Part shown: positions 971 through 21,935 of the stretch, one piece after another
Numbering within the stretch: position 1 is the stretch's first letter
Layout: each line of letters starts with the position of its first letter
IMG/VR virus record: IMGVR_UViG_3300005259_000074
Location: 64,001 to 128,000 of that record
Strand: one strand, 5' to 3'
Source: a virus
Taxonomy: Duplodnaviria > Caudoviricetes
DNA length: 64,000 nt
Notes under the pieces: generated by a model
Database searches by the model: none
Told to the model about the DNA's origin: nothing
What the model saw: the letters and a program-made list of their open reading frames with translations, nothing else
Position numbers and translations under genes: made by a program

Positions 971-1936
971 TCACAAGTTGTCGATGCTAGAGTAGATACC
1001 GATGTCGAGGATATTTCTCAAGCAGGGGTCACACAGAGCCGCTTCCATGGGCATCCTGTGGGTCTCCTTGTCTTCGAAGAACTCAGTCAAGTCTTTTGGA
1101 GCGCCGCACATGAAGCATGTTGGAATCGGATCTACTATGATCCTCTCTTTCATCTCTTGACACAGAGTCTGCAAACTTTTCTCATACAAGCGTTCAAAAG
1201 TAGACACGCCACTGAACATCTTGTGACCGATGTCTTTCTTCTTAAAAACGCACATTTTACAGTACTTATCGTCTCCACCGCATATTCTGTCTATCAAATG
1301 GCACGGAGTCGTCTGCTGTATCACGCTGGAACTGAGAGCTATGTGATCCTTCTTCGTCTTTGCAAATGGCTGCAACACTGGAAAACACGCTTCGCAGAAC
1401 CTCTGATAGCTGGCTCCGGCGAACTTGAACTCAGCTTGATCGTCCCAACACGATTTCTTTCTATGACAGTTCTCCCATTTATCATACTGAGTCCGCTCTA
1501 CTAGCCCCCTAAGCACCTTTGACATCGACACATCGGCAAATGGAATGCCCGACATGTTGAAGCTCTCTCCGTCGAATTCTATCTGGAGTTTGTCCCTTCC
1601 AGTGCGACGGACTCCTTTGACACCCCGGTCCTGGTCTGAGAAATGGTCATTCATGCTTGCGTTGCAAGCTACGACATCACCGACTTTCGCTATGCGCGTG
1701 TTACAACCACTGGAAGGAAAGCAGAAGTTGTTCGCCGACAACGACAGTGCGATATTGGCGTCTATGGGAAGATCGAACATGTCGTTTATCGCGTCTAAGA
1801 ACTGTAGTTCTTCGTCAGATATGGGATTACGAGACAAGATGAGCTCTGCAGCTAAAGCTGGCATGCTCCTACTGCCCAAGTCTACTACGAATGACGTCGT
1901 AGAGCTGTTGCTGACGAATCCTCTCCTCGTCTTCAT
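971..1936 (-). CDS. NSSSSS-leader family protein with Cys-rich C-terminal region
   Basis: start moved to ATG 1936 (ATGA overlap, GGAGGAG SD); MKTRRGFVSNSSTTSFVV; CxxC pairs; ends IDNL. Confidence 0.85.
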   Translation of the reverse strand: MKTRRGFVSNSSTTSFVVDLGSRSMPALAAELILSRNPISDEELQFLDAINDMFDLPIDANIALSLSANNFCFPSSGCNTRIAKVGDVVACNASMNDHFSDQDRGVKGVRRTGRDKLQIEFDGESFNMSGIPFADVSMSKVLRGLVERTQYDKWENCHRKKSCWDDQAEFKFAGASYQRFCEACFPVLQPFAKTKKDHIALSSSVIQQTTPCHLIDRICGGDDKYCKMCVFKKKDIGHKMFSGVSTFERLYEKSLQTLCQEMKERIIVDPIPTCFMCGAPKDLTEFFEDKETHRMPMEAALCDPCLRNILDIGIYSSIDNL

Positions 1937-2145
1937 ATCTCCTCCAGGTTCTGAGTCAGTATCGCATCGTAGTTGAGACATTTCTGATCTAACGAAAAAT
2001 CGTCATCTGTTATCTGTCCTGTCTTAAAATTTGAGGAAAAGATGCAAGCGTACATGACGTTCTTCGGGCATTGCTGTGGGCATGGCATCGACATTATATC
2101 GTGATAACAACGATATTCTCCACTGTCGTCTTTCCTGCAGTGCAT
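1933..2145 (-). CDS. Cys-rich miniprotein, C-tail family
   Basis: ends NLEEI. Confidence 0.85.
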   Translation of the reverse strand: MHCRKDDSGEYRCYHDIMSMPCPQQCPKNVMYACIFSSNFKTGQITDDDFSLDQKCLNYDAILTQNLEEI

Positions 2146-2146
2146 T

Positions 2147-2395
2147 CTATATCCCCTCCATCTTCATATCGGCCAACCTATCTGCGACAGCTTCGGGACA
2201 CCTGCCCCCGTGGAACTCAGCTCGGATGTCTTCGTACATACAGGTACCTACCAGAGCCGCTGATTCTTTGAAGTTCGCGCACTTTCGCTGGTAGTCGCGG
2301 CGATCTAAGCAATAATACCCTCCGCAGATCCACTTAGACCAAGCAAACTTCGACCTGGTGTTCTCCCTGCATAAGTTAGATTTGACACCGCTCAT
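2147..2395 (-). CDS. Cys-rich miniprotein, C-tail family
   Basis: NLC.., ends KMEGI. Confidence 0.85.
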   Translation of the reverse strand: MSGVKSNLCRENTRSKFAWSKWICGGYYCLDRRDYQRKCANFKESAALVGTCMYEDIRAEFHGGRCPEAVADRLADMKMEGI

Positions 2396-2649
2396 ATGTT
2401 GTCCAGTTTCATCTCTATTTCCGCGTCTTCAAGGGCCGCTTTGCACACGCACACTCTCATGCCGAACCACTCGCGAGGTCCTTGATGGGAGAATCTGCAC
2501 TTATCGTATTCTCCCTCGCGCGGTTTGAAGAACTCACACGCTGACACATCGATATACTCACCAGATCCTCTCATTTGGGTCCCAGGACTCTGGCACATCC
2601 CGTACATTCCCTCGTCATTCCGGTGTATCCAGCATAAGTTAGTCATCAT
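2392..2649 (-). CDS. Cys-rich miniprotein, C-tail family
   Basis: NLC..CEFF..CVC, ends KLDNI. Confidence 0.85.
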   Translation of the reverse strand: MMTNLCWIHRNDEGMYGMCQSPGTQMRGSGEYIDVSACEFFKPREGEYDKCRFSHQGPREWFGMRVCVCKAALEDAEIEMKLDNI

Positions 2650-2903
2650 ATCTCCTCCAACTTCGATGCGATATAACTGTCGGCCCTCGCTTCTTTAGAA
2701 TTGCAGTATGCGTACCCTCTCATGTAGTACGCGCAGATATTCTCCTTACCTTCTAGAGATGCGTAGACACACGCTTGGAACTCCCTGACTGGACCTCTTA
2801 GGTGCGAATCCGCGGCATAGTATTCCTTTTTGTACTTAGCAGTGCAGGAATAAGAGTCCGCACCATATCTATCATCATTAAACTTACAGTAGTTAGACTT
2901 CAT
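2646..2903 (-). CDS. Cys-rich miniprotein, C-tail family
   Basis: start moved to MKSNYCK (ATGA overlap); ends KLEEI. Confidence 0.85.
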   Translation of the reverse strand: MKSNYCKFNDDRYGADSYSCTAKYKKEYYAADSHLRGPVREFQACVYASLEGKENICAYYMRGYAYCNSKEARADSYIASKLEEI

Positions 2904-3154
2904 ACATCCTCCAACTTCGAGATGCTCACTCTGTCCCAGCGCGCTGCCTGACACTCGCAGCGGCAGCTGACAGGATCGTAGTACGTGCACACCCCATAGA
3001 GCTGGGAATCAGTTTCGTAGAAGTCACACGGTTTCTGGATCTTGACTATAGCGCGTTCCATGACGAGGTGGTTCCTGTCTTTCTCGTCGACAAACACGCA
3101 GTAGCACTCGTCTTCTGACTTCACGTACGTGCAAGCGTTGTACTCTTCTCTCAC
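2900..3154 (-). CDS. Cys-rich miniprotein, C-tail family
   Basis: CDFY..C..CRCEC, ends KLEDV. Confidence 0.85.
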   Translation of the reverse strand: MREEYNACTYVKSEDECYCVFVDEKDRNHLVMERAIVKIQKPCDFYETDSQLYGVCTYYDPVSCRCECQAARWDRVSISKLEDV

Positions 3155-3402
3155 AGCTCCTCCATCTTCATTATCACCGCTGCATCAGGATGTTGGCACC
3201 TGCTGTAGTACTCCCGGGAGTTCACATCTGTCTTGTCGATGTGTTCGTGGTGCCCTCTGCGGTAGCGGCATAGCTTGTACTCCTGGTCGGCGAACATTAC
3301 ACCGCTGGATAGGCGGCTGATCTCGAACATCTCGCACTCAGCTTGTGGCCAACCGTGGTCTTTGCACACTGCGATCTCGTCGATGAACTTACACAAGTTC
3401 AT
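3151..3402 (-). CDS. Cys-rich miniprotein, C-tail family
   Basis: start moved to MNLCK; ends KMEEL. Confidence 0.85.
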   Translation of the reverse strand: MNLCKFIDEIAVCKDHGWPQAECEMFEISRLSSGVMFADQEYKLCRYRRGHHEHIDKTDVNSREYYSRCQHPDAAVIMKMEEL

Positions 3403-3611
3403 AAGTCCTCTATCTTCTCTGTTATTTTCAAGTCTTCCCAAGCTTCTACGCTGATACAAGTGGCTGGACACTTCCGATGTCGGCAGTCGAACCACTTTCC
3501 ATCCGCCCTGTCGAAGTACTTACACATGCTCATGAGTTCCCACGCAGTGCAGGTGTACTTGCGTTCGATTTCGTGTCTGGCGCAGAAGTTGACTTTGATT
3601 TCTTCGTTCAT
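3399..3611 (-). CDS. Cys-rich miniprotein, C-tail family
   Basis: start moved to MNEEIKVNFC; ends KIEDL. Confidence 0.85.
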   Translation of the reverse strand: MNEEIKVNFCARHEIERKYTCTAWELMSMCKYFDRADGKWFDCRHRKCPATCISVEAWEDLKITEKIEDL

Positions 3612-3892
3612 ATCTTCTCGATGGCTCTGGTCAGCAGTTCGTCCGTCATCGCGTCTCCGTTCAGACATATGACGTACCCGATGTCCCTCGCGTAAGAGTA
3701 GATGCAATCCTTAGAGCAGTTCTTTCCTTTCATGAATGCGCTGTATTTGCAGTATCTGTCTGGAGGCATCCCGGTGCTGTAATGGTCTTCGTATTCTTCG
3801 ACGGAGATGTTCCTACCGACACACATGAACTCATCGTCGACTGAGACGCACAAGTTGTCTCCTCTGCTGTAAGGATTTGACCTCATGTTCAT
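3608..3892 (-). CDS. Cys-rich miniprotein, C-tail family
   Basis: NLC..CKYS..C, ends AIEKI. Confidence 0.85.
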   Translation of the reverse strand: MNMRSNPYSRGDNLCVSVDDEFMCVGRNISVEEYEDHYSTGMPPDRYCKYSAFMKGKNCSKDCIYSYARDIGYVICLNGDAMTDELLTRAIEKI

Positions 3893-4104
3893 AATTCCTC
3901 TAGTTTCTCAGCAAGTAATGCATCTGTATGTGCATCTTCACAAATACATGTAAAGAAACTGTTGTACATGCACGATGAATTCCACAATCTTCGTTTGAAA
4001 TAAGTACAATCTCGCTGTTCATCAGTGTACTCACAAGAGAACCTCAAACTATACTCTCGTGGTACCATCATCAAACGAATTAACTTGCACTTGTTCTCCT
4101 TCAT
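3889..4104 (-). CDS. Cys-rich miniprotein, C-tail family
   Basis: MKENKC..CTYF..CIC, ends KLEEL. Confidence 0.88.
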   Translation of the reverse strand: MKENKCKLIRLMMVPREYSLRFSCEYTDEQRDCTYFKRRLWNSSCMYNSFFTCICEDAHTDALLAEKLEEL

Positions 4105-4310
4105 AACTCTTCTATCTTTGCGTTGACTTCAGCCTCCTCTTGAGCTGTCTTGTGATTGCAGTACTCATCGTATTCTCCGCTGGTGAATTTACACCATCTT
4201 GAAGAACTACTGTCAAAGTACTTGCACTTCCAGTTGATGTCGTCGGTGCAATAGAATCTCTCAGAAGTTTTATTGTAGTTGAGCATCTTCACACACTTGT
4301 TTTCCTTCAT
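4101..4310 (-). CDS. Cys-rich miniprotein, C-tail family
   Basis: start moved to MKENKCVK; ends KIEEL. Confidence 0.88.
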   Translation of the reverse strand: MKENKCVKMLNYNKTSERFYCTDDINWKCKYFDSSSSRWCKFTSGEYDEYCNHKTAQEEAEVNAKIEEL

Positions 4311-4519
4311 AGCCTTTCCATCACCTCCACCGCCTGTGATTCTCGCTGTGCTGAGTAGCTCCTGCAGTACTCGTTGTGCTCTCCATCCGACTCGCGGCAA
4401 CAGTGGCGGTAGTCCCTGTAGTCGGGTGCGTAGTAGTCGCAGGGTTTCCCGCGTAATCGATAGCAGTAGAAATACCACTTTCCATTTACTACGACACTGT
4501 GACATCCATTCTTCTTCAT
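4307..4519 (-). CDS. Cys-rich miniprotein, C-tail family
   Basis: CDYY..CC..C, ends VMERL. Confidence 0.85.
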   Translation of the reverse strand: MKKNGCHSVVVNGKWYFYCYRLRGKPCDYYAPDYRDYRHCCRESDGEHNEYCRSYSAQRESQAVEVMERL

Positions 4520-4737
4520 ATCTTATCTAGTCCTATGCCTATCTTAGCTTCGTCGCACTTACAGAGTCTTCCGACCCCTGTGATGAATAATTTTCCGGCG
4601 TATATGCACATCCCGCGGCACTTTAGCTTCTTGCTCCGGACGTAGTAGTCGCACTCTGTCGCCCGACCTTTCGCGCGAGTCAAGTAATTGGTGCAGTACG
4701 TCCTGCCATCAGTTTCATTCAACCGACACATGTTCAC
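4516..4737 (-). CDS. Cys-rich miniprotein, C-tail family
   Basis: MNMC..CDYY..CKC, ends GLDKI. Confidence 0.85.
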   Translation of the reverse strand: MNMCRLNETDGRTYCTNYLTRAKGRATECDYYVRSKKLKCRGMCIYAGKLFITGVGRLCKCDEAKIGIGLDKI

Positions 4738-4738
4738 G

Positions 4739-4963
4739 TCATATCTCCCACATTCGGACGTCTATCAGCGCTTCTCTGTTGGTACACCTACACGACACTC
4801 TGCTGAGGCGGTCCACCTGTTTGCTGTGGACGCACGCGTTGGGGAATTCCCCATCTTCGCTGAAGTAGCAGCACTCCTTAGGATCAATGAGCATCACCGG
4901 AGCTCCACACATCAGAGATTCATCGTTCATGTTCTTCCACAGGAGACTTCTGACGTCACGCAT
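4739..4963 (-). CDS. Cys-rich miniprotein, C-tail family
   Basis: CCYF..C..CRC, ends RMWEI (variant tail). Confidence 0.8.
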   Translation of the reverse strand: MRDVRSLLWKNMNDESLMCGAPVMLIDPKECCYFSEDGEFPNACVHSKQVDRLSRVSCRCTNREALIDVRMWEI

Positions 4964-4964
4964 G

Positions 4965-5207
4965 TCACAGCCCTCTCATCTTCAGCTCTAACAGTGCTTC
5001 ATCACTAGTGCACATGCGAAAAGGAAGAGTACTATCTATGTTCTTCCCGTACTCGCACACGTTGTCGTAGATCAAATAGTGCCTGTCCATCTCTTCATTA
5101 CAGCATCGCTCGAAGTAATCGCAGGTGGTTTGTTCAACGTTGCTACTGCTGATTATCGCGCCGCACAAGTGAGGACCGTCCTCGTTAGTTGAAAGGCAGT
5201 AGTTCAC
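4965..5207 (-). CDS. Cys-rich miniprotein, C-tail family
   Basis: MNYC..CDYF, ends KMRGL (variant tail). Confidence 0.82.
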   Translation of the reverse strand: MNYCLSTNEDGPHLCGAIISSSNVEQTTCDYFERCCNEEMDRHYLIYDNVCEYGKNIDSTLPFRMCTSDEALLELKMRGL

Positions 5208-5422
5208 AGCTCCTCCATCTGTTTGTCTAATATAGCGTCTTTACAGAAGCAGGTGTAAGTAGTGTTAGAACTTGGGGTCTCGTATCCTTCGTATGCGCAC
5301 TTGCGAGTCCCGTCTTTCCACGATAACATATTGTTGAGTTGGTAGAAATCGCATACTAACCTAGAAGATGTGATCCACCCGCAAGTCGCTTTCCCATTTT
5401 CAGATATGTGACAGTAGTTCAC
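5204..5422 (-). CDS. Cys-rich miniprotein, C-tail family
   Basis: GTG start via GTGA overlap; ends ILDKQMEEL. Confidence 0.85.
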   Translation of the reverse strand: MNYCHISENGKATCGWITSSRLVCDFYQLNNMLSWKDGTRKCAYEGYETPSSNTTYTCFCKDAILDKQMEEL

Positions 5423-5646
5423 AACTCCTCCAGTTTCAGGTCCATCTTCAGCGACGGACAGCAACATACCACAGTAAAATTCGAATAAGGAAGACAAAGC
5501 GCGTACTTACACGGTTGTCTGTGGTTCAACAAGTTGACTCTATTGATGACTTCGCAGTAATCGCAGAGTTCTATGCCGCGAGCGGAGTCGTAGCACCCCG
5601 AAGTACATCGGTACACACCGGCTGACTCGTAGCATGCTATCTTCAT
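5419..5646 (-). CDS. Cys-rich miniprotein, C-tail family
   Basis: start moved to MKIAC; ends KLEEL. Confidence 0.85.
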   Translation of the reverse strand: MKIACYESAGVYRCTSGCYDSARGIELCDYCEVINRVNLLNHRQPCKYALCLPYSNFTVVCCCPSLKMDLKLEEL

Positions 5647-5882
5647 AGTTCCTCCATCGCCCTCTCCAGCTTGGCTTCTACACAAGAACACTGGAAATTC
5701 CTGTTACCGACTTCTTCTGCATGCTTACAAAAATCAGCGACTCGCTTCCTTTCGAAGAACTTGCAGTCCCTTTCTTCTCCGTCGTGAATCGGCAGCGTTG
5801 GTGGGAACCGCTTCAGATCGTAATCGTGGAACACGTGCCTGTGGCATTCCCCACTGGAAGAACACAAGTTGTGCAGTATCAT
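5643..5882 (-). CDS. Cys-rich miniprotein, C-tail family
   Basis: NLC..CKFF..CSC, ends AMEEL. Confidence 0.85.
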   Translation of the reverse strand: MILHNLCSSSGECHRHVFHDYDLKRFPPTLPIHDGEERDCKFFERKRVADFCKHAEEVGNRNFQCSCVEAKLERAMEEL

Positions 5883-6088
5883 AGATCCTCCACTGCGTTG
5901 TCCATCTGAGCGTCTTTACACGAGCAGAACACGTGACACGAGTCACTGGTGTCTGCGTGCACGCAGACTGGCCTCAACATGAAGGTAGAAACACCACCTA
6001 GGTCATCGTAGTACTCGCATTCATGATTCTTCATAGCGAGCAGCATGCAGTAGTACTTTCCATTTATCGCTTTAGAGCAGGCGTTCAT
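5879..6088 (-). CDS. Cys-rich miniprotein, C-tail family
   Basis: start moved to MNACS; ends AVEDL. Confidence 0.85.
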   Translation of the reverse strand: MNACSKAINGKYYCMLLAMKNHECEYYDDLGGVSTFMLRPVCVHADTSDSCHVFCSCKDAQMDNAVEDL

Positions 6089-6375
6089 AGTTCCTCTATG
6101 TTGAATTCGACTGCCGCGCTGAGGATTGCATCGCAACTGCTGCACCTATTCATCATCTTCCAGCCTATGTCGGAAGAGACGTCTACTTCGAAAGCGCACC
6201 CTAAGTAGGTCACGTACTTGATGTGGGTTGAAGATGGTTGTTCTACCGCTTTTTTCCGAGAAAAGGGATCGAATTCACATGGTTGAGATAATATGTTTTT
6301 CGCCATCTCGTGTCGCTTAGTGCAGTAAGCCACTCGCGTGGTGTTTTCGCGCTCTATCTTGCAGTAGTTCATCAT
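6085..6375 (-). CDS. Cys-rich miniprotein, C-tail family
   Basis: NYC..CEF, ends NIEEL. Confidence 0.85.
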   Translation of the reverse strand: MMNYCKIERENTTRVAYCTKRHEMAKNILSQPCEFDPFSRKKAVEQPSSTHIKYVTYLGCAFEVDVSSDIGWKMMNRCSSCDAILSAAVEFNIEEL

Positions 6376-6572
6376 AACTCTTCCATCTGTTTGTCTAGTA
6401 TAGCTTCTTTGCTATTGCACAGAGCAGCCGTACCTCTTAGATTTTCGTACATACACCTCTGTATCATCTTACTGAAGATTTCTCCTGGTTCATAGTATAC
6501 ACACTCACAACTACCTAATATAGTTTGACAGTAATAAGTCTTATCGATCAGAACGCACTTGTTGTCTTTCAC
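6372..6572 (-). CDS. Cys-rich miniprotein, C-tail family
   Basis: MKDNKC..CVYY, ends ILDKQMEEL. Confidence 0.85.
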   Translation of the reverse strand: MKDNKCVLIDKTYYCQTILGSCECVYYEPGEIFSKMIQRCMYENLRGTAALCNSKEAILDKQMEEL

Positions 6573-6775
6573 AACCTCTCCAACGCATATGACAGCTTAG
6601 CTTCTTTCGCCGCTTCTTCGCAATAGCACTGGTGCCCGTGGCAGTGGAGACAGCCGTTCTTGTCATCGCCACGAGACACGAAGTACTTGCACTCCTCTGC
6701 AGCCATGTCAAAGAACTCTGACTTGCGCCAGCACATCTCCCTTTTTACAGAGCACATGTTGATTAAACGTTTCAC
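6569..6775 (-). CDS. Cys-rich miniprotein, C-tail family
   Basis: CKYF..C..CYC, ends ALERL. Confidence 0.85.
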   Translation of the reverse strand: MKRLINMCSVKREMCWRKSEFFDMAAEECKYFVSRGDDKNGCLHCHGHQCYCEEAAKEAKLSYALERL

Positions 6776-6993
6776 AATTCCTCCAGCACGTCGGCAATTG
6801 GGTCTGTTGCAGCGATAGCGACGGGATTTTTACACACTCTAATGTTGGGGTTCGATTTAAGTATCCCGGCGAACTGACACCAAGACTTGTGGGACTTCTT
6901 GAAGAACTTACATCCATCCCACATCGACATTCCAGATAGTGAAACGCACTTCCATCCAGCGACCCGGTCGTACTTACACATGTTAGTCTTCAT
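6772..6993 (-). CDS. Cys-rich miniprotein, C-tail family
   Basis: MKTNMC..CKFF, ends VLEEL. Confidence 0.85.
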   Translation of the reverse strand: MKTNMCKYDRVAGWKCVSLSGMSMWDGCKFFKKSHKSWCQFAGILKSNPNIRVCKNPVAIAATDPIADVLEEL

Positions 6994-7199
6994 ATCTCTT
7001 CAATCTTCGCTGCGGTGATGGCTTCTTCGCAAGTGCACAACTTCATGCGCCTAACTCCAGATAAATTCTCGTATATTAACGTCTTCGTGTGTGCGCACAT
7101 TACCCACCACGTAGTGGGATTCCGATAGTCGCACGCCCCTCGCGAAGTCAGATTGACACACAATGCTCTACCTTCTTCGTCTATTTTACAGTGGTTCAT
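6990..7199 (-). CDS. Cys-rich miniprotein, C-tail family
   Basis: MNHC..CDY..CTC, ends KIEEI. Confidence 0.85.
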   Translation of the reverse strand: MNHCKIDEEGRALCVNLTSRGACDYRNPTTWWVMCAHTKTLIYENLSGVRRMKLCTCEEAITAAKIEEI

Positions 7200-7588
7200 A
7201 TGTCTTTTATCTTAGCTTCGAGACACGCCGGCTCACAACGACACACATAACCGCTAGATATCTGTACGCTAAACTTGCACTTCTCCAGACTCATGTCTGA
7301 GTACTCACACTGACTCATCGAGTAGAAACCAGTCCCAAGACACACGAACGCGTCTCCAGCAGCTTCGCAGAGGGTGTAATCGCACTTGTGCTCTTCTTCA
7401 GAGAACTTTATGGCTGTTCCACACTTGCATACGTACCGAGAGTCCCTGTGCCACTCTGCATAAAAGCACTTGTTGCAACCGGTATCTTGCTGCACGTAGT
7501 GGACGCACTCCTTCTGTCCAGCGTCTTTGACACTACAGTAGTTGCCAGTCTCGTTCCTGACGCACAAGTTGTTTGGGAGCTCCAACAA
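7196..7588 (-). CDS. Double-domain Cys-rich protein, C-tail family
   Basis: two tandem Cys units each ending VCxC; one tail KIKDI; TTG start uncertain. Confidence 0.8.
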   Translation of the reverse strand: MLELPNNLCVRNETGNYCSVKDAGQKECVHYVQQDTGCNKCFYAEWHRDSRYVCKCGTAIKFSEEEHKCDYTLCEAAGDAFVCLGTGFYSMSQCEYSDMSLEKCKFSVQISSGYVCRCEPACLEAKIKDI

Positions 7589-7609
7589 ATTTCATCCTTC
7601 GTTTACTAT

Positions 7610-7637
7610 AATCTACACCACAATTGACATTTGTAAA
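7610..7637 (-). promoter_or_regulatory. Putative sigma70-type early promoter for the leftward array
   Basis: TTTCCC-TTTACA-16nt-TAGATT, same core as promoters at 18419 and 30040. Confidence 0.55.
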
Positions 7638-7662
7638 GGGAAATCTGAGAAAAATTTCTATT

Positions 7663-7691
7663 TTGACTCCGGCATCCATTTCGCCTAGTAT
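7663..7691 (+). promoter_or_regulatory. Putative sigma70-type promoter for the rightward array
   Basis: TTGACT-17nt-TAGTAT upstream of AGGAGG SD and GTG 7712. Confidence 0.5.
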
Positions 7692-7711
7692 TCTACTGGA
7701 AAGGAGGACTC

Positions 7712-8008
7712 GTGAAGAAGTTATTGTTGACTCCGGAAGAAGACGCCGTGTTAGATGAGGCGTTCACTCGGATAGCTGATGTCCTAGAAGTCGCAGTATG
7801 CTCGTGCGATCCCGAAGTCGAGAGCGACGAGGGTACTCGTAGAAAAATTGATCGAGTGCTCCAATGGTTTGTCGCAGAGGGGTTCTTCTTGGGCTTCATC
7901 TCTCGTGTATTAGAAGAAGAGAGAATTTACGCCAACGGAGTGTATCTAGCACCGATAGAAGTGACTATAATGTTCGAAAGCGGAGCGACAATAGTCGATA
8001 AAATATGA
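7712..8008 (+). CDS. Hypothetical acidic protein with family-like tail
   Basis: strong SD; ends IVDKI; lacks the Cys pattern. Confidence 0.8.
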   Translation: MKKLLLTPEEDAVLDEAFTRIADVLEVAVCSCDPEVESDEGTRRKIDRVLQWFVAEGFFLGFISRVLEEERIYANGVYLAPIEVTIMFESGATIVDKI

Positions 8009-8307
8009 TCATGGGGTTAGACTACATCTACTTAGAACGGGGGAGGGGACCTGCGTACAGCATCTTCGATAAGAAGATGAAGTGTCTTGGTCTCTCAGGT
8101 AAGTCTATCCCAGGGTGCAAGTTCTATGTCAGAAAGAAGAAGCTCATCCCCTTCTTGGTACTCAAACTACTGCAAGTGAAGGAGGAAGATCGGTGCACTC
8201 CTTTCGAAGTGGGTGACCTAGCCGACATCACCTGCGAGTTCCACAGAGAGAAAAACACTTGTGAAAATCCCGAAGTCAAACTGGAGTTTGCCCTAGAAGA
8301 GGTATGA
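8005..8307 (+). CDS. Cys-rich miniprotein, C-tail family
   Basis: CKFY..C..C..C, ends ALEEV. Confidence 0.82.
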   Translation: MIMGLDYIYLERGRGPAYSIFDKKMKCLGLSGKSIPGCKFYVRKKKLIPFLVLKLLQVKEEDRCTPFEVGDLADITCEFHREKNTCENPEVKLEFALEEV

Positions 8308-8540
8308 CTGTGTTGAAAAGTAAGCGCGAGAGCTTGTGTAAGATTGGAGATGGGTACTATTCGTGCAACTTTGAGTTCAGATTCTTTGACGACTGCGTCC
8401 ACTTTGAACATCTCGACAAAAGGCACATTCCAGGCGTCTGTAAATTCTTTAGGTCAGTCGTAGACACTAACACTATGAAGCTGAGATGCATATGCTCGTG
8501 TCTCGAAGCGGCGGCCGCCGCTGAATTGGAGAACTTGTGA
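8304..8540 (+). CDS. Cys-rich miniprotein, C-tail family
   Basis: CVHF..CKFF..CICSC, ends ELENL. Confidence 0.85.
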   Translation: MTVLKSKRESLCKIGDGYYSCNFEFRFFDDCVHFEHLDKRHIPGVCKFFRSVVDTNTMKLRCICSCLEAAAAAELENL

Positions 8541-13847: not shown

Positions 13848-14049
13848 GTATGTTTCTTTTGAGTCTAAAAAGCGATTCTTAAAACCTTCGTCAAAGTGTT
13901 TATTGGACGAAGACAACTTCTCCACCGCGCCCGTCGCCCATGATCTCATGTTTCTTCTGGTACGACGGCAACTGCCAATGAGACTTGTGACCGAGTGCTG
14001 GCATCTTTTCAGGACCCCTGGCGAGCAATTCCTTGCCGGTGTTTCTATA

Positions 14050-14283: not shown

Positions 14284-14501
14284 ATATTCTCCAGGGTTAA
14301 AACACACAACGCATCTGTCCTAGCGTCTTCACTTTCACAAGCGTAAATGAATTGCATGTTTTTGCACCACCAACTAGACGAACTGTCTTCTGGTTTTTCG
14401 TAGTACTTACATCTTTTCACGCTCGACATGCTGCAGTCGCATAAGAAACTCCTCTGACCACCGCGATCGTCGATGCGACAATAGTTCTCTTTAGTCTTCA
14501 T
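14280..14501 (-). CDS. Cys-rich miniprotein, C-tail family
   Basis: NYC..CKYY, ends TLENI. Confidence 0.85.
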   Translation of the reverse strand: MKTKENYCRIDDRGGQRSFLCDCSMSSVKRCKYYEKPEDSSSSWWCKNMQFIYACESEDARTDALCVLTLENI

Positions 14502-14782
14502 AGTTCTTCAATCTTTCTCAGCGCCCAGTACTCGTCTCTCATCGCTTCTTCTATAGTGAAGTTCATGCACCTCCGGAATTTTCCTTGGTACTTGTGGTGT
14601 ATGCACCAACCGCTCTTGTCATTTTCTCTGAAAGCGCAGTCTTCGATATCCATTGGACTCTCACAACCCAATGTGATGTACACCTTTTCATTCTGAGTGA
14701 CATCCCATGTAAAAGCGCTGACGCTTATGTTAGTCTTATTACCCAAGCAAGACGTAGTCTTCCACTGTTCGGTGTCTTTCAC
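14498..14782 (-). CDS. Cys-rich miniprotein, C-tail family
   Basis: ends KIEEL. Confidence 0.85.
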   Translation of the reverse strand: MKDTEQWKTTSCLGNKTNISVSAFTWDVTQNEKVYITLGCESPMDIEDCAFRENDKSGWCIHHKYQGKFRRCMNFTIEEAMRDEYWALRKIEEL

Positions 14783-15000
14783 AACAATTCCAATCTGTAC
14801 TGCAGTTCGGCTTCTGGATACATTTCCTCATTCCCACAACGCATCCAACGATCGTCGACTCCGTAGAATATACACCGTCTCATTCCATCTTCAAGATCTT
14901 CAATGTATCCAATGCAATGCTCTTGGTCTTTGGGCGTATCATATGCTGCGCACTCTTTGTTGCCATATTTGTCAATACAGCATAGATTTTTCTTCTTCAT
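14779..15000 (-). CDS. Cys-rich miniprotein, C-tail family
   Basis: NLCC.., ends RLELL. Confidence 0.85.
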   Translation of the reverse strand: MKKKNLCCIDKYGNKECAAYDTPKDQEHCIGYIEDLEDGMRRCIFYGVDDRWMRCGNEEMYPEAELQYRLELL

Positions 15001-15245
15001 ATGTCTTCTAACTTCATCTCAGCGATTTTCATTGGAAGCCACACGCTGATTATAGTCGGATGATGACATATTTCTTCATATCTTACACACATATCACAGT
15101 GCCCTCCGTCTAACCGCTTCATCGCCCCGTACTGGCACAGGTGATTCTGCTCGCCGCTACTGCATATAGCCCGGTCTTCATCGAAGAGCACTGTGAAGAA
15201 GTTCTCGATGTCTCTCATGATGTCGTCATCGGTCACATCTTTCAC
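14997..15245 (-). CDS. Cys-rich miniprotein, C-tail family
   Basis: ends KLEDI. Confidence 0.85.
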   Translation of the reverse strand: MKDVTDDDIMRDIENFFTVLFDEDRAICSSGEQNHLCQYGAMKRLDGGHCDMCVRYEEICHHPTIISVWLPMKIAEMKLEDI

Positions 15246-15457
15246 AGCTGTTCTAACCTCAAGTCCACTGAAGCGTCGGCTATAGCTGCTTCACAGTGAC
15301 ACTCTCTCAATCCATTCTCCCTGAACTTACACGAACGATGATGCACAGTGATCTTTTCGTAGAACACACAGTAATCCTCGTTCCCGATGTCACACGCGAA
15401 GAAACCATCAGAAGGATCTAACCAGAATACCTCCCAAAAGCACATGTTTCTTTTCAC
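15242..15457 (-). CDS. Cys-rich miniprotein, C-tail family
   Basis: NMC..CVFY..CHC, ends RLEQL. Confidence 0.85.
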   Translation of the reverse strand: MKRNMCFWEVFWLDPSDGFFACDIGNEDYCVFYEKITVHHRSCKFRENGLRECHCEAAIADASVDLRLEQL

Positions 15458-15666
15458 AGTTCTTCTATCTTCTTTCTGACGTCCTCTTCCAGATGAACGT
15501 CGATGCTTCTACAATATCCACCTTCCCTGTGCACACAGCTAAGTCTGTTGAAGAACAGCCCTCTTACGTAGAACTCGCACTTCAGCTCATCTTCCTCTTC
15601 TGTTGCACTGCACCAGTAGAGGTATTTCCCGAAGAACGGCTGCAACGAGCGAAAGCAGTTGTTCAC
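15454..15666 (-). CDS. Cys-rich miniprotein, C-tail family
   Basis: GTG start via GTGA overlap; ends KIEEL. Confidence 0.85.
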   Translation of the reverse strand: MNNCFRSLQPFFGKYLYWCSATEEEDELKCEFYVRGLFFNRLSCVHREGGYCRSIDVHLEEDVRKKIEEL

Positions 15667-15893
15667 AGAGACCTCATTTTGGCGTCTACTATCGCATCTC
15701 TGTTCTTGCACAGCGATTCTACAACAAGCACACTGAGGATCATGGATATGTGTAAGTGAATGCATCCAAATGCTTTATCATCATCTCCTTCAAAATATTG
15801 ACAAGGTGGTGTCGTCTTAGAAGTATATGTACACCTATAGAACTCCTCTCCAGTCTTATCTATTGTCCATATCTCGCACATGTTGTCTCTCAT
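15663..15893 (-). CDS. Cys-rich miniprotein, C-tail family
   Basis: start moved to MRDNMC; ends KMRSL (variant). Confidence 0.82.
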   Translation of the reverse strand: MRDNMCEIWTIDKTGEEFYRCTYTSKTTPPCQYFEGDDDKAFGCIHLHISMILSVLVVESLCKNRDAIVDAKMRSL

Positions 15894-16129
15894 ATGTTGT
15901 CTAACGCTGATTCGGCTAGTGCGACCGAGTTGGTGCACTCTTGTCCTTGTCCGCGTGACTTCACATATATGCATCCATTCCAACACGATTCCCATGTATG
16001 AGGATCAGCTTCCGGAGCACACTTGAAGTGTATGCAAAGATTAATGCACATATTAGTCTTTGCATTAGTAACTATCTGTCTAAGGCACTTTCCCCCGACG
16101 ACGCAGTTGTTCTTCAAGTAAACTCTCAT
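15890..16129 (-). CDS. Cys-rich miniprotein, C-tail family
   Basis: ends ALDNI. Confidence 0.85.
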   Translation of the reverse strand: MRVYLKNNCVVGGKCLRQIVTNAKTNMCINLCIHFKCAPEADPHTWESCWNGCIYVKSRGQGQECTNSVALAESALDNI

Positions 16130-16323
16130 AGTTCCTCGATCTTTCGCTCTATCACTGCATCTTTACTCTTACATCGCCCCCAGCGACGCCAATGAGCGCA
16201 ACACGCGTCTTCTTTTCCGCACTCGTAATAATGGCACAGCAGCATCTCGTACACTGTTGAAGTATCACAGAAGTACTTTTTGTTTCGCTCTATACACAAG
16301 TTCTTCTTCTCAAGGTCTTTCAT
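16126..16323 (-). CDS. Cys-rich miniprotein, C-tail family
   Basis: NLC..CHYY, ends KIEEL. Confidence 0.85.
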   Translation of the reverse strand: MKDLEKKNLCIERNKKYFCDTSTVYEMLLCHYYECGKEDACCAHWRRWGRCKSKDAVIERKIEEL

Positions 16324-16535
16324 ATGCTGTCTAACTTAAAAATACTCTGTGATTCTCTCCACGCTTCTTCATTAGCGCACCAGAAAGAAAATTTAAAACG
16401 CTTATTGTGACCGCATAGGTAGGTAGTCTGGTACTTGCATCGCATGCCAGTGTAGCTGTAATTCATCCGCACGAAGAACTTACACTGACTGCTAGTACAT
16501 ACTCTATCCGCAGAGCACCTGTTATTCTTAGTCAT
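16320..16535 (-). CDS. Cys-rich miniprotein, C-tail family
   Basis: CKFF.., ends KLDSI. Confidence 0.85.
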   Translation of the reverse strand: MTKNNRCSADRVCTSSQCKFFVRMNYSYTGMRCKYQTTYLCGHNKRFKFSFWCANEEAWRESQSIFKLDSI

Positions 16536-16542
16536 GATACTT

Positions 16543-16791
16543 TTAGATGTCCTCCATCTTCGCCGCCGTGAGTGCTTCGGAGTTCCAGCACTTGTTCACG
16601 TCAAATTCTCCTTCTTTCTCGTGGTGGGCGCAGGCTGGCGTGATGTCTCTGAGGTTTATGCTATGCTTGTAGAATGTGCAGAAGCGTTCGAAAGATGAAT
16701 TGATGGTCATACAAGCACCGTCTACGTGGCAGCAGTTCAATTTCTCGTCGAGTGCGTTTAGATCTTTTGTAAAAGAGATGAGTGGAATCAT
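16543..16791 (-). CDS. Cys-rich miniprotein, C-tail family
   Basis: NCC..CTFY, ends KMEDI-TAA without overlap. Confidence 0.85.
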   Translation of the reverse strand: MIPLISFTKDLNALDEKLNCCHVDGACMTINSSFERFCTFYKHSINLRDITPACAHHEKEGEFDVNKCWNSEALTAAKMEDI

Positions 16792-17024
16792 AGTTCCTCT
16801 ATCTTAGTGTCGAGGAGTGCTTCACTGCACGTGCAGTGAGGTATAGACACGCTGTTGGGATCTCTGATCATCGTCCTCCAACGGCACTGGTTGTCAGCTG
16901 ACTCTCCAAAATAAAAACAAGTGCTGTACATATGACCGGGTGAAAGACACCACCCTTCAGGTGTGCAGAAGTTGAATCCACTGGTCCTCCGCAGTTCTGC
17001 TACGAATTCGTCTACGTCTGTCAT
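16788..17024 (-). CDS. Cys-rich miniprotein, C-tail family
   Basis: NFC..CFYF..CTC, ends KIEEL. Confidence 0.85.
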   Translation of the reverse strand: MTDVDEFVAELRRTSGFNFCTPEGWCLSPGHMYSTCFYFGESADNQCRWRTMIRDPNSVSIPHCTCSEALLDTKIEEL

Positions 17025-17233
17025 AGTAGTTCCATCTCGATAGATAAGATAGCGTCTTTGTCGCTGCAGGCGTATACGTCCGATGAGACGCTGTCATCTG
17101 CGATGCGATGTCCCAAGCACATCAACAGCTCTTTGTCTAACTTAAAGAAAGGGCACTTATCCTCATCTTCGAAGCCGTTAGCAGTGCACTGGTAGTCCCC
17201 ATTATCAGACCTAGCTATCACGTCACTCGTCAT
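17021..17233 (-). CDS. Cys-rich miniprotein, C-tail family
   Basis: start moved to MTSDV; CPFF; ends EMELL. Confidence 0.8.
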   Translation of the reverse strand: MTSDVIARSDNGDYQCTANGFEDEDKCPFFKLDKELLMCLGHRIADDSVSSDVYACSDKDAILSIEMELL

Positions 17234-17729
17234 CTTGTATGTAGGTGAACTGCCTCCCCGGTCCAGACGATCGCATGTCAGCTTCTGCTCCTCCATCTTC
17301 GTCGCTGAACGTCATGTAGTACACGTCATTACCAATGAACTTCTTCGAGATCTCTCTCGATATGATGTTGTACCCCAGGCACATGATGAGGGCCTTCTCT
17401 TCGTCGGTGTCGTACGTGTCATCGACGTCTATGATCTTTGAGATAGTGTCATGTTCTTTGTTGATGACATCGCGCAGCAATTTATCGATGTCATTGTGTG
17501 ATCTCCTAGACAGAGTAGTTGCATTGTCGTTGTACTTGACTCTCGACACCAGCGCATGCGCGACTCCGATAGCGCTAGCCGAGACATTCGCGAGTTCTTG
17601 GTCGATCACAGGGCGCTCGTCTTCACTGCACTGGTCCAGCAGTTTATTGCGTTCTTTTGGGTCTTTCGGAATGACCACTATGAACGAGGAAGAACTGCTG
17701 TTCGAGACGAATCCATTTCGAATCTTCAT
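17223..17729 (-). CDS. NSSSSS-leader family protein
   Basis: MKIRNGFVSNSSSSSFIVV N-terminus. Confidence 0.88.
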   Translation of the reverse strand: MKIRNGFVSNSSSSSFIVVIPKDPKERNKLLDQCSEDERPVIDQELANVSASAIGVAHALVSRVKYNDNATTLSRRSHNDIDKLLRDVINKEHDTISKIIDVDDTYDTDEEKALIMCLGYNIISREISKKFIGNDVYYMTFSDEDGGAEADMRSSGPGRQFTYIQDDE

Positions 17730-17950
17730 ATGTCTTCTATCCTCTTTGTCAAGTTGAATTCTTTCAATAGAGTGTCGAGCAGATCCTCACTAGCGCAGTA
17801 CTTCTTGCGTTTCAACGTGAAAGAGTCTTCGCACGCCTTCTTGTTCCCTTTCCAGAACTCACACTTACCTTTGTCAGTCGCGAGACACTCAGCTGGATTG
17901 TTCACAGCATCCCACTTGTCCTTCGCGTCAGTCTTTGCTGCGTGTTTCAT
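17726..17950 (-). CDS. Cys-containing miniprotein, C-tail family
   Basis: CEFW..C..C, ends RIEDI. Confidence 0.82.
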   Translation of the reverse strand: MKHAAKTDAKDKWDAVNNPAECLATDKGKCEFWKGNKKACEDSFTLKRKKYCASEDLLDTLLKEFNLTKRIEDI

Positions 17951-18255
17951 CAGACATCCTCTAACTTGAGATTAATTGCAGCCTCTCTGCTGGTGCAGAC
18001 TACTATGTCTACCGTACCGCTAGAACCGCTGATCATCCTACTACCGTGCCACAGCTGAGACCAGCGACATGCCGTAGAGAACCTCCACTTATCCGAAGTG
18101 ACGATAGTCGAATGCGTCTTCTTGTAGAAAGAGCACTTGGTCATCTGCTCGTAGTTCTTACAGCTGCACCACCAGCGGTCAGCCATCCACTTCGTGTTAG
18201 CAGACGTTCTAGACCCATCGTACTTCTTACAGAAAGAACTCTTGTCTCTCGGCAT
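17950..18255 (-). CDS. Cys-rich miniprotein, C-tail family
   Basis: CSFY.., ends KLEDV; AGGAG SD. Confidence 0.85.
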   Translation of the reverse strand: MPRDKSSFCKKYDGSRTSANTKWMADRWWCSCKNYEQMTKCSFYKKTHSTIVTSDKWRFSTACRWSQLWHGSRMISGSSGTVDIVVCTSREAAINLKLEDV

Positions 18256-18413
18256 CGGAACTCCTGACTTCTGAAATTTTTCTATCTATACCTCGAGATG
18301 GCGAGGCGCTATACCTTATTATAAAGGGAATTGGACGCGTCACTGTATCATAATTCCACGTAAGTCATTGGTACTGAGTGAATTAAAAGAAAATGTGAAA
18401 AATATGCCAGCAT

Positions 18414-18499
18414 TTTCCTTTACATCTGTGTAGAATGGTTGTATATTAGACTCCATTAGGGGAACCAACACGGCTCCCACCAAACGGAGAATGGCAATG
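18414..18499 (+). promoter_or_regulatory. Early promoter plus leader cassette (copy 1)
   Basis: TTTACA(18419)-17-TATATT(18442), CCATTAGGGGAAC, GGAGA SD; paralog of 30034..30122. Confidence 0.8.
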
Positions 18500-18817
18500 A
18501 AAAAGATCACGTCGACAATCCTCGAGAACTCGATGATCGGAATTTTCGTCCAGAAGGGTGTCCCTGCGAGCTGCGGTGCTCGGATGTTCAACAAGACGGC
18601 GGACACCTTCACGTTTGGCAAGGGCTTCTTCTACAGCAATGGGATGACTGCCGAGACATTTGCGGCGAAGGTATTGCTGGACCTCCGCACCTCTGGATAC
18701 ACCGTCGAGAGGCTCGACTGCGGCCAGCATGGGGCGCCTTTCCACGGCGGTGCCGACCGCTTCCAGAGCAAGAACAGCTTCTTCTGGGTCGTATGTAACG
18801 TCACCAAGAACGCTTGA
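18497..18817 (+). CDS. Hypothetical early protein
   Basis: first gene after the promoter; start set by alignment to the 30120 cassette. Confidence 0.8.
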   Translation: MKKITSTILENSMIGIFVQKGVPASCGARMFNKTADTFTFGKGFFYSNGMTAETFAAKVLLDLRTSGYTVERLDCGQHGAPFHGGADRFQSKNSFFWVVCNVTKNA

Positions 18818-18826
18818 GAGGGAGAT

Positions 18827-19045
18827 ATGAAACAGAGATTCTTGTATCTGCTAGTAAGGGAGATGGGAACGCCTCCTAACATAATAAATGCCTTTCCTTT
18901 CGCGAGCGAAGCGGAGCGCGACCAGAAGATCGCAGAGTACCTCGAAGATGACCCGGAACTCAACATCGCGAAAGTGGACACGACTCCCGACAACATGTGG
19001 ATCACCCCGGTCAACCACACCATGTTGAAAAGGAAGAACACATGA
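18827..19045 (+). CDS. Hypothetical protein
   Basis: GAGGGAG SD; coupled to next gene. Confidence 0.75.
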   Translation: MKQRFLYLLVREMGTPPNIINAFPFASEAERDQKIAEYLEDDPELNIAKVDTTPDNMWITPVNHTMLKRKNT

Positions 19046-19347
19046 CACACATCGAGATAGCCGTCGCCGATGACGTCGACCCGAATGTTAAGAAGACTGT
19101 CGGCCACCTCATGGCCGACAAAGACTTCATGAAGATGATCACCGGCATCCGCTCCGTAGGCTCTTCGTGCGTTTTTTTCTTCACGAAGAAAAGCCACAAG
19201 AGCGTAGACAGAGCGATTGCTCTTGCAAAACTGCAAGTCACGGGCGAGGTCGACGTCAGAGACAACGTGTTCGACTGGGGGATCAAACTGGTCAAACGCT
19301 TTCCGGTAGCTCTTGCATCAAAAATTCAAACGAAAGGTCAATTCTGA
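19042..19347 (+). CDS. Hypothetical protein
   Basis: start moved to ATGA overlap (MTHIE). Confidence 0.75.
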   Translation: MTHIEIAVADDVDPNVKKTVGHLMADKDFMKMITGIRSVGSSCVFFFTKKSHKSVDRAIALAKLQVTGEVDVRDNVFDWGIKLVKRFPVALASKIQTKGQF

Positions 19348-19348
19348 C

Positions 19349-19465
19349 ATGGAAGTCTTCATATTTCTTATGTTAGTTTTCATAGCATGCAATCTCCCGA
19401 ATACTTCACGAATAGAAGGTCAGTTAGATAAAATAATCAGACTGTTAGAAGAGAAGAACAAGTGA
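19349..19465 (+). CDS. 38-aa putative membrane peptide
   Basis: MEVFIFLMLVFIAC hydrophobic N-terminus; fills the gap; below ORF-track cutoff. Confidence 0.55.
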   Translation: MEVFIFLMLVFIACNLPNTSRIEGQLDKIIRLLEEKNK

Positions 19466-19498
19466 ACAATACTAGTAAGTGAGAAGATAGGGGTGTAA

Positions 19499-19876
19499 GT
19501 GAGAGACAAGAGTTCGATGGAGTTCTTCTTTAAAGGCGCGCGCGTAGTGTGCACGTTGACAGACTCTATCATGTCATTCTCAATGGAGGACCAGACTAGA
19601 CACACTATCACGAACAACTTAGAAGAGATATACCGCACGTCTATTCCCCATCTACCGATCACCAACATAAAGGAATTCCTCGTCGGCATGCTTAACAAGA
19701 AGAGGGCAATCATCTACAGAGATTCTGATGGCACTTGGAACGTAGTCTTCCACGGTGGCGAAGAGTGGAAATCTCTGGTTGACAAGCTAGTGCCGGAGTG
19801 GGTTGCGACGGATCTGCCGACAGAAGATGTTGCTATGAGAGAGGCGATGTGTCGCATAAAACTAGAAGGACTGTGA
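19499..19876 (+). CDS. Hypothetical protein carrying the family tail
   Basis: non-family fold ending IKLEGL. Confidence 0.78.
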   Translation: MRDKSSMEFFFKGARVVCTLTDSIMSFSMEDQTRHTITNNLEEIYRTSIPHLPITNIKEFLVGMLNKKRAIIYRDSDGTWNVVFHGGEEWKSLVDKLVPEWVATDLPTEDVAMREAMCRIKLEGL

Positions 19877-19989
19877 AATTGCTGTCAACTTACATAGAGA
19901 TGCGCAACAGCGGTTTCGCCCTGAGTGACGTCTACGGAATGACAGGGGACCCTTTCGACGAAGAAGACATAGAACACCCAGTAATATAG
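19873..19989 (+). CDS. 38-aa hypothetical peptide
   Basis: GTGA overlap; fills the gap. Confidence 0.5.
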   Translation: MKLLSTYIEMRNSGFALSDVYGMTGDPFDEEDIEHPVI

Positions 19990-20004
19990 ACAAAGGAGAT
20001 TGAT

Positions 20005-20700: not shown

Positions 20701-20957
20701 TACTGCTGGCGCTCATAGGATTCGTAGTAATGATATGCGTGATCTTGTACATGCTGTTGTTCTTGATAGCGCTGATACCCAACACCATGTTCTTCGCTAG
20801 CTATCCAGGAGTTTCCATCTGTGTCGTCCTACGTGAAGGATTCAAGAGCGCCAGGGGTTTCGGAGACATAGCTCTGATGGCATTAATCGCATTTACCAGC
20901 ATTCCGCTGATCATCCTACAAGCAATCGGAACACCTTTCGCATCTAAAGATGAGTGA
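20697..20957 (+). CDS. Putative membrane protein
   Basis: 2-3 long hydrophobic segments. Confidence 0.75.
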   Translation: MILLALIGFVVMICVILYMLLFLIALIPNTMFFASYPGVSICVVLREGFKSARGFGDIALMALIAFTSIPLIILQAIGTPFASKDE

Positions 20958-20969
20958 CATAGAGATACT

Positions 20970-21206
20970 ATGAAATCCCCATACAATACGTATGTTCATC
21001 CATATGGGACTTTCATAACCTGTAAAGTACCTCCGGATGAACAGTGCACACACGCATGTAAGTACTTTGGATGTAGAAATGAATATCTTCCAGTAACTTT
21101 GAAATATGCTGGACAATGCCGGCACTTCTCGTGGTCGAACAGCGAGTGCATGAATCCAGATGTCAGGAAAGAAGTGAAATTGGTAGAGGAGATGGAACTA
21201 ATTTGA
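20970..21206 (+). CDS. Cys-rich miniprotein, C-tail family
   Basis: CKYF..C..C, ends EMELI. Confidence 0.85.
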   Translation: MKSPYNTYVHPYGTFITCKVPPDEQCTHACKYFGCRNEYLPVTLKYAGQCRHFSWSNSECMNPDVRKEVKLVEEMELI

Positions 21207-21424
21207 ATATCAAAGATGAAACGTACTACGGCTTCACATACAATCCCCGGTGGAAAGCTGATTGCAAGAACGGTATCCACCTCTGGGACGAGGTGCTGTC
21301 TGCGGACGGACACTATCTAGTGTGTGATGAGTGCCAGTTGATGATACGCATCGAGAGCAAAGCGGTAGACCGCTCGTACGAAGAGCCAGAGTACTCGCTC
21401 AACAAGAAACTGGAGGAGATATGA
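21203..21424 (+). CDS. Small Cys/His protein, C-tail family
   Basis: TTGA overlap; C..H..CxxC; ends KLEEI. Confidence 0.75.
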   Translation: MNIKDETYYGFTYNPRWKADCKNGIHLWDEVLSADGHYLVCDECQLMIRIESKAVDRSYEEPEYSLNKKLEEI

Positions 21425-21681
21425 ATGCCCCACGTTCGTGCTGCAAGAGGATAAACGGACGCTTCTTGTGCTACCGCTACGCCGTCCCGGAAGCAGTGTG
21501 CGCGTATTTCTTGCACAAACCGGGTGTTCATGATGACCCTAAGTTAGTGCCATCTAGATGCGAATTCGCGTTAGATCCAGCTATTACAGGCACTTCTACC
21601 AAAGGACTGATCACGATAGAAATCTTCGGAGAGTGCTTCAACGACGAGGCGAAGCTGTTAGCTGAGCTGGAGGAGATATGA
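21421..21681 (+). CDS. Cys-rich miniprotein, C-tail family
   Basis: start moved to MNAPRSCC; ends ELEEI. Confidence 0.85.
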   Translation: MNAPRSCCKRINGRFLCYRYAVPEAVCAYFLHKPGVHDDPKLVPSRCEFALDPAITGTSTKGLITIEIFGECFNDEAKLLAELEEI

Positions 21682-21935
21682 ACGGCTGCGAGATTATAGT
21701 CTGTGACACTGGAGATGCTTGGGCAAACTGCAGGACATCGACGGAGAGCAATCTGATAGAGACTATGTGTGAGTTCTTTAAAGATACTTCAAACACGTAT
21801 CCACAGTGTGTCTACAACAAAAAGTTCCCGCAGTGTACTTGTATCACGGCGATAGAGAAAGCTTGTGCACAGCAGGGGATAGACACCTCGGTCATATGGA
21901 ACTCCATAGCAGAAGAAAAATTGGACGACATATGA
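21678..21935 (+). CDS. Cys-rich miniprotein, C-tail family
   Basis: CEFF..CTC, ends KLDDI. Confidence 0.85.
   Translation: MNGCEIIVCDTGDAWANCRTSTESNLIETMCEFFKDTSNTYPQCVYNKKFPQCTCITAIEKACAQQGIDTSVIWNSIAEEKLDDI

Follow-up and report, generated by a model that had tools for sequence, protein, structure and literature searches.

Paralogous mini-genes of a large uncultured myovirus share a short coding junction that is probably a translational-coupling joint

Long runs of small paralogous genes in the genome of a large uncultured myovirus, a distant relative of the T4-like phages, raise the question of what purpose is served by the short sequence that joins each gene to the next. We analysed positions 64001–128000 of the 262,470-bp IMG/VR virus record IMGVR_UViG_3300005259_000074; this whole stretch of 64,000 nucleotides is called the window, and positions below are those of the window unless the genome is named. 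The proteins encoded by these mini-genes have a tail that ends in a short helix, with hydrophobic-Glu-Glu/Asp-Ile/Leu as the last four residues, and the genes stand head to tail in long operons. A first-pass annotation noticed that the DNA encoding the tail overlaps the start of the following gene and recurs as an identical 16-mer, and proposed that each gene is a self-contained cassette that recombination within the junctions could add, remove or reorder, much as in integrons but without an integrase. Our analysis points to a compact translational-coupling joint laid over a conserved peptide tail, not to a dedicated recombination site, and we consider this reading probable, though far from certain.

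An iterated hidden Markov model search of the open reading frames (ORFs) of the genome recovered 112 members of a single family, about 56 of which lie within the window; the reversed-sequence control of the model gave 1 hit. The proteins are 65–130 residues long (roughly 75 is typical), have a five- or six-cysteine framework, begin with a sequence resembling M-K/N-x-N-x-C and end in the tail described above. No match to the family was found in Pfam or PHROGs. The four-residue ending is shared by about 150 predicted genes of the genome, non-family proteins among them. One member at 7196–7588 (minus strand) is 130 residues long, carries two cysteine frameworks in one ORF and is apparently a two-unit fusion; two-unit forms are also present among metagenome matches (P0081).

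Most of the genes do abut by ATGA, GTGA or TTGA overlaps, as had been claimed: 90 of the 112 family genes end in NTGA (66 in ATGA, 22 in GTGA and 2 in TTGA), a further 4 have a stop/start overlap of one nucleotide (nt), and 99 of all 112 stop with TGA. An ORF of 40 codons or more begins at the overlapped start in 78 genes, and in 63 it is another family gene (within 1932–21682, 34 of 42). The codons that precede the stop are far from randomly chosen. A terminal isoleucine is encoded by ATA in 85% of cases versus 36% inside the same genes (p = 5e-11), and a terminal leucine by xTA or xTG in 94% versus 66% internally; this bias of the last codon to NTA and NTG creates the overlapped start codon. 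Further upstream, the glutamate at position −3 is encoded by GAG in 63% versus 48% (p = 0.013), and the leucine preceding the first glutamate by xTG in 55% versus 39%. No codon bias was found for the glutamate at −2.

The paired glutamate codons had also been read as the Shine-Dalgarno (SD) site of the next gene, in the form GGAGGAG. This is borne out in a looser form: an SD-like site is present at about 60% of the junctions, but the full GGAGGAG occurs at only 6 of the 65 coupled family junctions, where the shorter GGAG or GAGG is seen at about 24–25. The mean energy of the predicted anti-SD duplex is −5.7 kcal/mol at coupled junctions, −5.1 kcal/mol at ordinary genes and −2.8 kcal/mol for random coding 20-mers, and values of −4.4 kcal/mol or lower are reached by 62% of coupled family starts, 61% of ordinary genes and 23% of random coding sequences. 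Identity between junctions is limited to about −15 to +2 around the stop, with background reached at +3, and the most invariant nucleotides form an xTG-GAG-GAx-xTA-TGA core. Judged from sequence, the junction has the features of ATGA-type coupling, namely a 4-nt or 1-nt overlap together with an SD-like motif inside the upstream gene. One stretch of 12–16 nt serves as the end of a peptide tail, a putative ribosome-binding site, a stop and a start at the same time, and is reused roughly a hundred times.

The proposed joint would work as follows. The third base of the last codon and the TG of the TGA stop together form the start codon of the next gene, as the codon bias shows. The purine-rich Leu/Met-Glu-Glu codons that lie a few bases before it may form a GGAG/GAGG-type ribosome-binding site of ordinary strength wherever the SD-like site is present. 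A ribosome that ends one mini-protein probably re-initiates on the next, as it does at other ATGA overlaps (PMC6728339). Any help that the short homology between junctions gives to gene gain or loss would be an incidental side effect.

The conserved nucleotides could also be explained if the tail is not a functional peptide, and its C-terminal residues are the mere translation of an SD sequence and a start codon for the next gene. In its favour, the nucleotides that vary least are those of the core given above, and the SD-like site is a little stronger where a start follows (−5.8 for tails with a coupled start versus −4.6 for those without, p = 0.014, a contrast that is blurred by start calls). 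However, 18 family genes without an overlapping start still end in hydrophobic-Glu/Asp-x-hydrophobic or a close variant, and conservation reaches about −11 (Ala) and −5 (Lys), which is beyond any SD. Codon choice at Glu(−2) is unbiased and Glu(−3) is GAA in one third, and 64 of 83 small family proteins from other metagenome contigs retain the tail. Since the tail is kept where there is no downstream start, we reject it as a mere by-product of the SD and regard this explanation as very improbable.

Turning to the repeats themselves, all three copies of the 16-mer CTGGAGGAGATATGAA are exact, as are the two further copies of its 14-mer core TGGAGGAGATATGA (Table 1), and no other exact copy of the 16-mer occurs in the 262-kb genome. 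The third copy is a direct repeat of the second, 257 bp apart. When up to 2 mismatches are allowed there are 9 matches, compared with 0.10 expected from shuffles of the window, and all near-matches fall at gene junctions. The 16-mer carries the most common junction nucleotide at 15 of 16 positions and is the consensus spelling of the joint, LEEI-stop overlapping Met-Lys/Asn. Two nulls were used to judge its recurrence, one in which codon columns were shuffled among 148 tail junctions and another in which codons were resampled synonymously with the amino acids fixed. Across these nulls, some 16-mer was present at least three times in 9–13% of trials. Three identical 16-mers are therefore many more than the genome background would give, but no more than expected from the codon composition of the junction itself, and they recur because about 150 junctions draw on one narrow codon pool. 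That the three copies are a pure coincidence with no shared cause is scarcely credible. Although the junction model yields such a triple in about 10% of its shuffles, so that the exact triple is in itself unremarkable, the excess of near-matches and their location at junctions refute coincidence as the full explanation, and the shared junction grammar is their cause. Coupling as such is a known principle (PMC6728339), whose consensus form here is the repeated 16-mer.

Does the junction also act as a point of exchange between genes? The description of each gene as a self-contained cassette is right in its anatomy: every gene has its own start, tail and stop, and about 60% also have an SD-like site for the next gene. 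From this anatomy it follows that an in-register crossover between two junctions would leave the genes intact. We found no positive support for integron-like gain, loss and shuffling without an integrase, and several indirect results lean against frequent shuffling. In a comparison of the genome with itself, no pair of family genes had DNA similarity over more than 50 nt, and the best protein identity among paralogues is 25–43%, so there are no recent duplicates. Best-paralogue relations link immediate neighbours in 16 of 76 cases, which fits old tandem duplication. The tyrosine recombinase profile PF00589 had no match in the 262-kb genome, and matched 14 of 14 control genomes. No attC-like sites were found at the junctions, where the 4-nt overlaps leave no intergenic space, and the junction repeats are coding sequences of 16–49 nt, not palindromes. 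Within positions 1–20000, promoter-like sites (27 versus 21.3±4.1) and terminator-like sites (14 versus 13.7±3.9) are both at the level expected by chance.

A different possibility is that the junction doubles as a coding linker and is a preferred crossover point for gene gain and loss, in which case it would be a coding analogue of promoter-early stem-loop (PeSL) cassettes. Short homology at the 16–21-nt junction would be used, either by phage recombination or by microhomology-mediated joining, and whole mini-genes could be added, deleted, replaced or inverted without breaking expression, which would have helped the family to reach about 110 copies. Nearly all repeats of at least 16 nt in window positions 1–24000 are junctions, in direct as well as inverted orientation, and the phage encodes a RecA/UvsX-like recombinase. 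However, efficient homologous recombination in T4 is reported to take roughly 50 bp of homology, and typical pairs of junctions match exactly in register over about 6–10 nt, far below this length. Longer patches are seen in a few places. The patch at 5196–5242 includes the final 12 codons of one gene, its stop/start overlap with the following gene and the opening codons of the latter, and the gene bodies are otherwise dissimilar from those around its partner. In the patch at 14262–14293, identity sets in within the junction, 11 nt ahead of the stop, and extends into the downstream paralogue's N-terminus (MKTNMC). Such patches could stem from an occasional exchange or duplication with its boundary at the junction, but there are few of them. 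Foreign genes, for a GNAT acetyltransferase and a serine-tag protein, are spliced in exactly at junctions, although any gene that persists in a compact operon should have precise boundaries.

Related sequences offer a second view of the stability of the arrays. Searched with HMMER, a set of 1.84 billion representative proteins gave 120 matches, of which 87 are not from this genome; 83 of these are at most 130 residues long (the small proteins considered above), and a few long proteins among the 87 are probably chance matches. As a sensitivity control for the searches of relatives, a second search of the phage's own genome recovered 84 family members. Orthologues were taken to share a contig when protein-cluster look-ups gave the same size in bp for the contig that carries them. 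By this measure, a 14,670-bp JGI contig carries orthologues (35–68% identity) of ten genes between window positions −5221 and 5497. A prediction, made before the last look-up, that four more orthologues would fall on this contig was borne out. Similarly, a 13,619-bp contig carries orthologues of the five genes at 14050–15666, a 31,561-bp contig those of 22161–22406 and 31377–31598, and two ENA contigs of a more distant relative (4,730 and 4,299 bp) those of two near-neighbour window genes each. Neighbourhoods thus appear to be conserved at two levels of divergence. Stable gene order had been named by the first-pass annotation as a finding that would refute its proposal, and stability of the arrays is partly borne out, in that orthologues on single contigs mirror the neighbourhoods of the window. 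The tails of orthologues are 57% identical and their bodies 52%, and gene-specific tail signatures are kept, which argues against homogenisation by frequent exchange; concerted evolution of the tails was rejected on the same ground. Overall, the arrays look old and mostly vertically inherited.

Two metagenome proteins from ENA, P0043 and P0077, are each encoded on a 1,900-bp contig, share 51% identity and both match best to genome positions 31665–31883. They may represent a difference in tandem copy number between relatives.

Several observations weigh against reading the junction as a coupling joint in genes that are inherited vertically. About 40% of the junctions have no clear SD-like site, and the motif begins at −9/−8 (GGAG at −9), at the short end of the range, while spacing in the genome peaks at −12/−11. 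The adjacent identical pair at 21410 and 21667 has P = 0.02 under column shuffling, with P = 0.12 when the amino acids are fixed. Three junction pairs, the two patches described above among them, share somewhat longer similarity than column shuffling usually yields, with scores of 26, 24 and 23, for a null maximum with a mean of 20 and a 95th percentile of 23. What the related contigs show is co-location on a contig, not gene order. Finally, in word-based searches no homologue elsewhere was found for 21421–21681 (among 5.8 billion protein clusters) or for 14997–15245. The former lies between the identical direct 16-mers and the latter between two genes conserved in a relative, and both orphans would fit cassette-level insertion or replacement. 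Rapid divergence, or homologues missed by a word-based search, could explain them as well.

The arrangement of the structural genes bears on the same question. In a distant relative (L005, positions 5431–11654) a 257-aa gene, the sheath and tube genes, and 313-aa and 275-aa genes are contiguous. Their homologues are scattered here among the arrays, with the 257-aa gene at window positions −60455 to −59778, the tube gene at −8372 to −7830 on the opposite strand, and the 313-aa and 275-aa genes at 55314–57071. Because mini-gene arrays lie between these genes, the structural module has been broken up. This scattering, as well as the orphans, favours the linker, and the lack of recent duplicates, the brevity of the shared homology, the conservation of neighbourhoods in two sets of related contigs that differ in divergence, and the tails that are not homogenised count against it. 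On balance, we regard a preferred crossover point as possible but not likely. A weaker version, with the junction acting now and then as an in-register breakpoint and in that sense as a coding analogue of PeSLs, is also rather improbable. It is doubtful that a 16–21-nt linker accounts for the rise of the family to about 110 copies together with the dispersal of the core structural genes. If relatives showed gain or loss bounded at junctions, the PeSL/linker idea of phage mosaicism would be extended to coding sequence.

The tail sheath gene at 11644–13794 is about 29% identical to cyanophage and vibriophage sheaths. Comparison of the arrays with cultured phages by megablast and blastn gave no DNA-level match, and tblastn with one family member gave none. 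Searches with the sheath and radical SAM genes recovered only the distant relatives L004–L007 (40–56% identity), none of which has the family, and no family member was found in the nearest large viral record (213 kb, with a radical SAM gene that is 52% identical). Orthologue-based scans of viral, metagenome and genome collections yielded no loci, and a degenerate junction pattern run over IMG/VR yielded 40 loci, none with family genes. A search of the window against Rfam found nothing.

Table 1. Location of the junction repeats, gene chains and associated features in the window
Feature	Position	Strand	Remarks
16-mer, copy 1	1932–1947	−	Joins weak family-like gene 1933–2145 (ends ...NLEEI) to serine-tag protein gene
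16-mer, copy 2	21410–21425	+	Joins non-family small gene (~21203–21424, ends KKLEEI) to family gene 21421–21681
16-mer, copy 3	21667–21682	+	Joins family gene 21421–21681 to family gene 21678–21935
14-mer core	2646–2659	−	Joins two family genes, 2646–2903 into 2392–2649
14-mer core	9205–9218	+	Joins family gene 8994–9218 to GNAT acetyltransferase gene (~9215–9709) embedded in array
Serine-tag protein gene	~971–1936	−	Begins MKTRRGFVSNSS at the overlapped ATG
Chain of ~33 tail-bearing mini-genes	53–7588	−	Extends left of the window to genome position 59258; interrupted by serine-tag gene 971–1936; promoter-like site at chain head, 7637–7610
Family gene chain	8005–10196	+	Includes the GNAT gene
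Family gene chain	14050–18255	−	Five members (14050–15666) have orthologues on one 13,619-bp metagenome contig
Family gene chain	20970–23388	+	Leads into radical SAM/SPASM gene 23385–24458
Weak family member	21421–21681	+	Identical direct 16-mers on both sides
Tail-bearing non-family gene	14997–15245	−	Between two genes with orthologues on the 13,619-bp contig
Junction-centred patch	5196–5242	−	50 nt at 84% with 6361–6410
Partner of the 5196–5242 patch	6361–6410	−	
Junction patch	14262–14293	−	32 nt at 94% with genome 31209–31240
Tail sheath gene	11644–13794	+	Stands alone between arrays; strong terminator-like hairpin at 13813–13842
~120-nt promoter-plus-leader element	18388–18506	+	Heads the operon with the 20970–23388 array

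Other genes are found in or beside the arrays. The GNAT acetyltransferase gene at 9215–9709 (plus strand) lies inside a mini-gene chain with 4-nt overlaps on both sides and is without the tail. A second paralogous family, whose proteins start MKxRxGFVSNSSSSS (phrog_7397), is represented at 971–1936 (minus), 17223–17729 (minus) and 25644–27188 (plus). It adjoins the radical SAM/SPASM gene at 23385–24458, and the same pairing is present in the distant relatives L006 and L007.

How the junction compares with known systems can be stated feature by feature. Integron gene cassettes are moved by the IntI integrase, a tyrosine recombinase, at attI and attC sites, and attC is an imperfect inverted repeat. 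The mini-genes are like integron cassettes in being small, promoterless and co-directional genes that would be expressed from an upstream promoter. However, they are paralogues rather than unrelated cassettes and have neither a tyrosine recombinase, nor attC-like imperfect palindromes, nor intergenic space. Membership in the integrons is rejected on the absence of an integrase and of attC sites.

In the modular theory of Susskind and Botstein, conserved boundary or 'linker' sequences were reportedly proposed to account for the mosaicism of lambdoid phages. The junction resembles such linkers in that a short conserved sequence at a gene boundary could favour in-register exchange of modules. It differs in that the boundary here lies within the coding sequence of a paralogous family.

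PeSLs are mobile regulatory cassettes in the hyperplastic regions of T4-type phages (Arbiol et al. 2010, PMC2839356). They are intergenic, consist of a sigma-70 promoter and a stem-loop terminator, bound indels between phi1 and RB49, and form mini-circles (PMC2839356). As with PeSLs, the genes on either side of the short regulatory repeat are small and non-essential and belong to a T4-like phage; the repeat could in principle serve as a recombination joint, and the arrays lie in hyperplastic regions between core genes. Unlike PeSLs, the junction lies in coding sequence, extends over only about 16 nt, and lacks intergenic space as well as a promoter and a hairpin. The junctions are not members of the PeSL class, given that promoter and hairpin are both missing.

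Elsewhere in the genome we noted two elements of a more regulatory kind. An element of about 120 nt is present in five copies that are 75–87% identical (window positions 18388–18506 and 29988–30129; genome positions 29710–29862, 36982–37127 and 175786–175873). Its parts are a sigma-70-like promoter (TTTACA-17-TATATT), then a conserved leader, GGAGAA and an ATG. The copies lie in divergent intergenic regions, where they head plus-strand operons. In form, the element resembles a PeSL more closely than the coding junction does. An 81-nt element occurs in three copies that are 84–88% identical (window positions 37551–37631; genome positions 152118–152198 and 231108–231192). It ends in an AGGAG/AGGAA-like motif and is probably a shared promoter or leader.

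A further system for comparison is ordinary translational coupling. Co-directional gene pairs that overlap at ATGA or TGATG are translationally coupled, and the upstream gene of such a pair contains an SD motif (Huber et al. 2019, PMC6728339). The genes of the myovirus likewise overlap by 4 nt at NTGA, the final codons of the upstream gene hold a purine-rich SD-like motif, and codon choice there is biased in favour of the downstream start. In contrast to those pairs, coupling is here read from sequence, a single grammar is reused about 80–150 times in one phage genome, and the same 12–15 nt encode a peptide tail motif, an SD-like site, a stop and a start. The arrays are an unusually clear example, repeated across a genome, of three constraints (the tail, the ribosome-binding site and the stop/start overlap) that act on a single short piece of DNA at once, and the set of junctions provides useful natural data with which selection on codon choice at the protein level can be told apart from selection at the RNA level.

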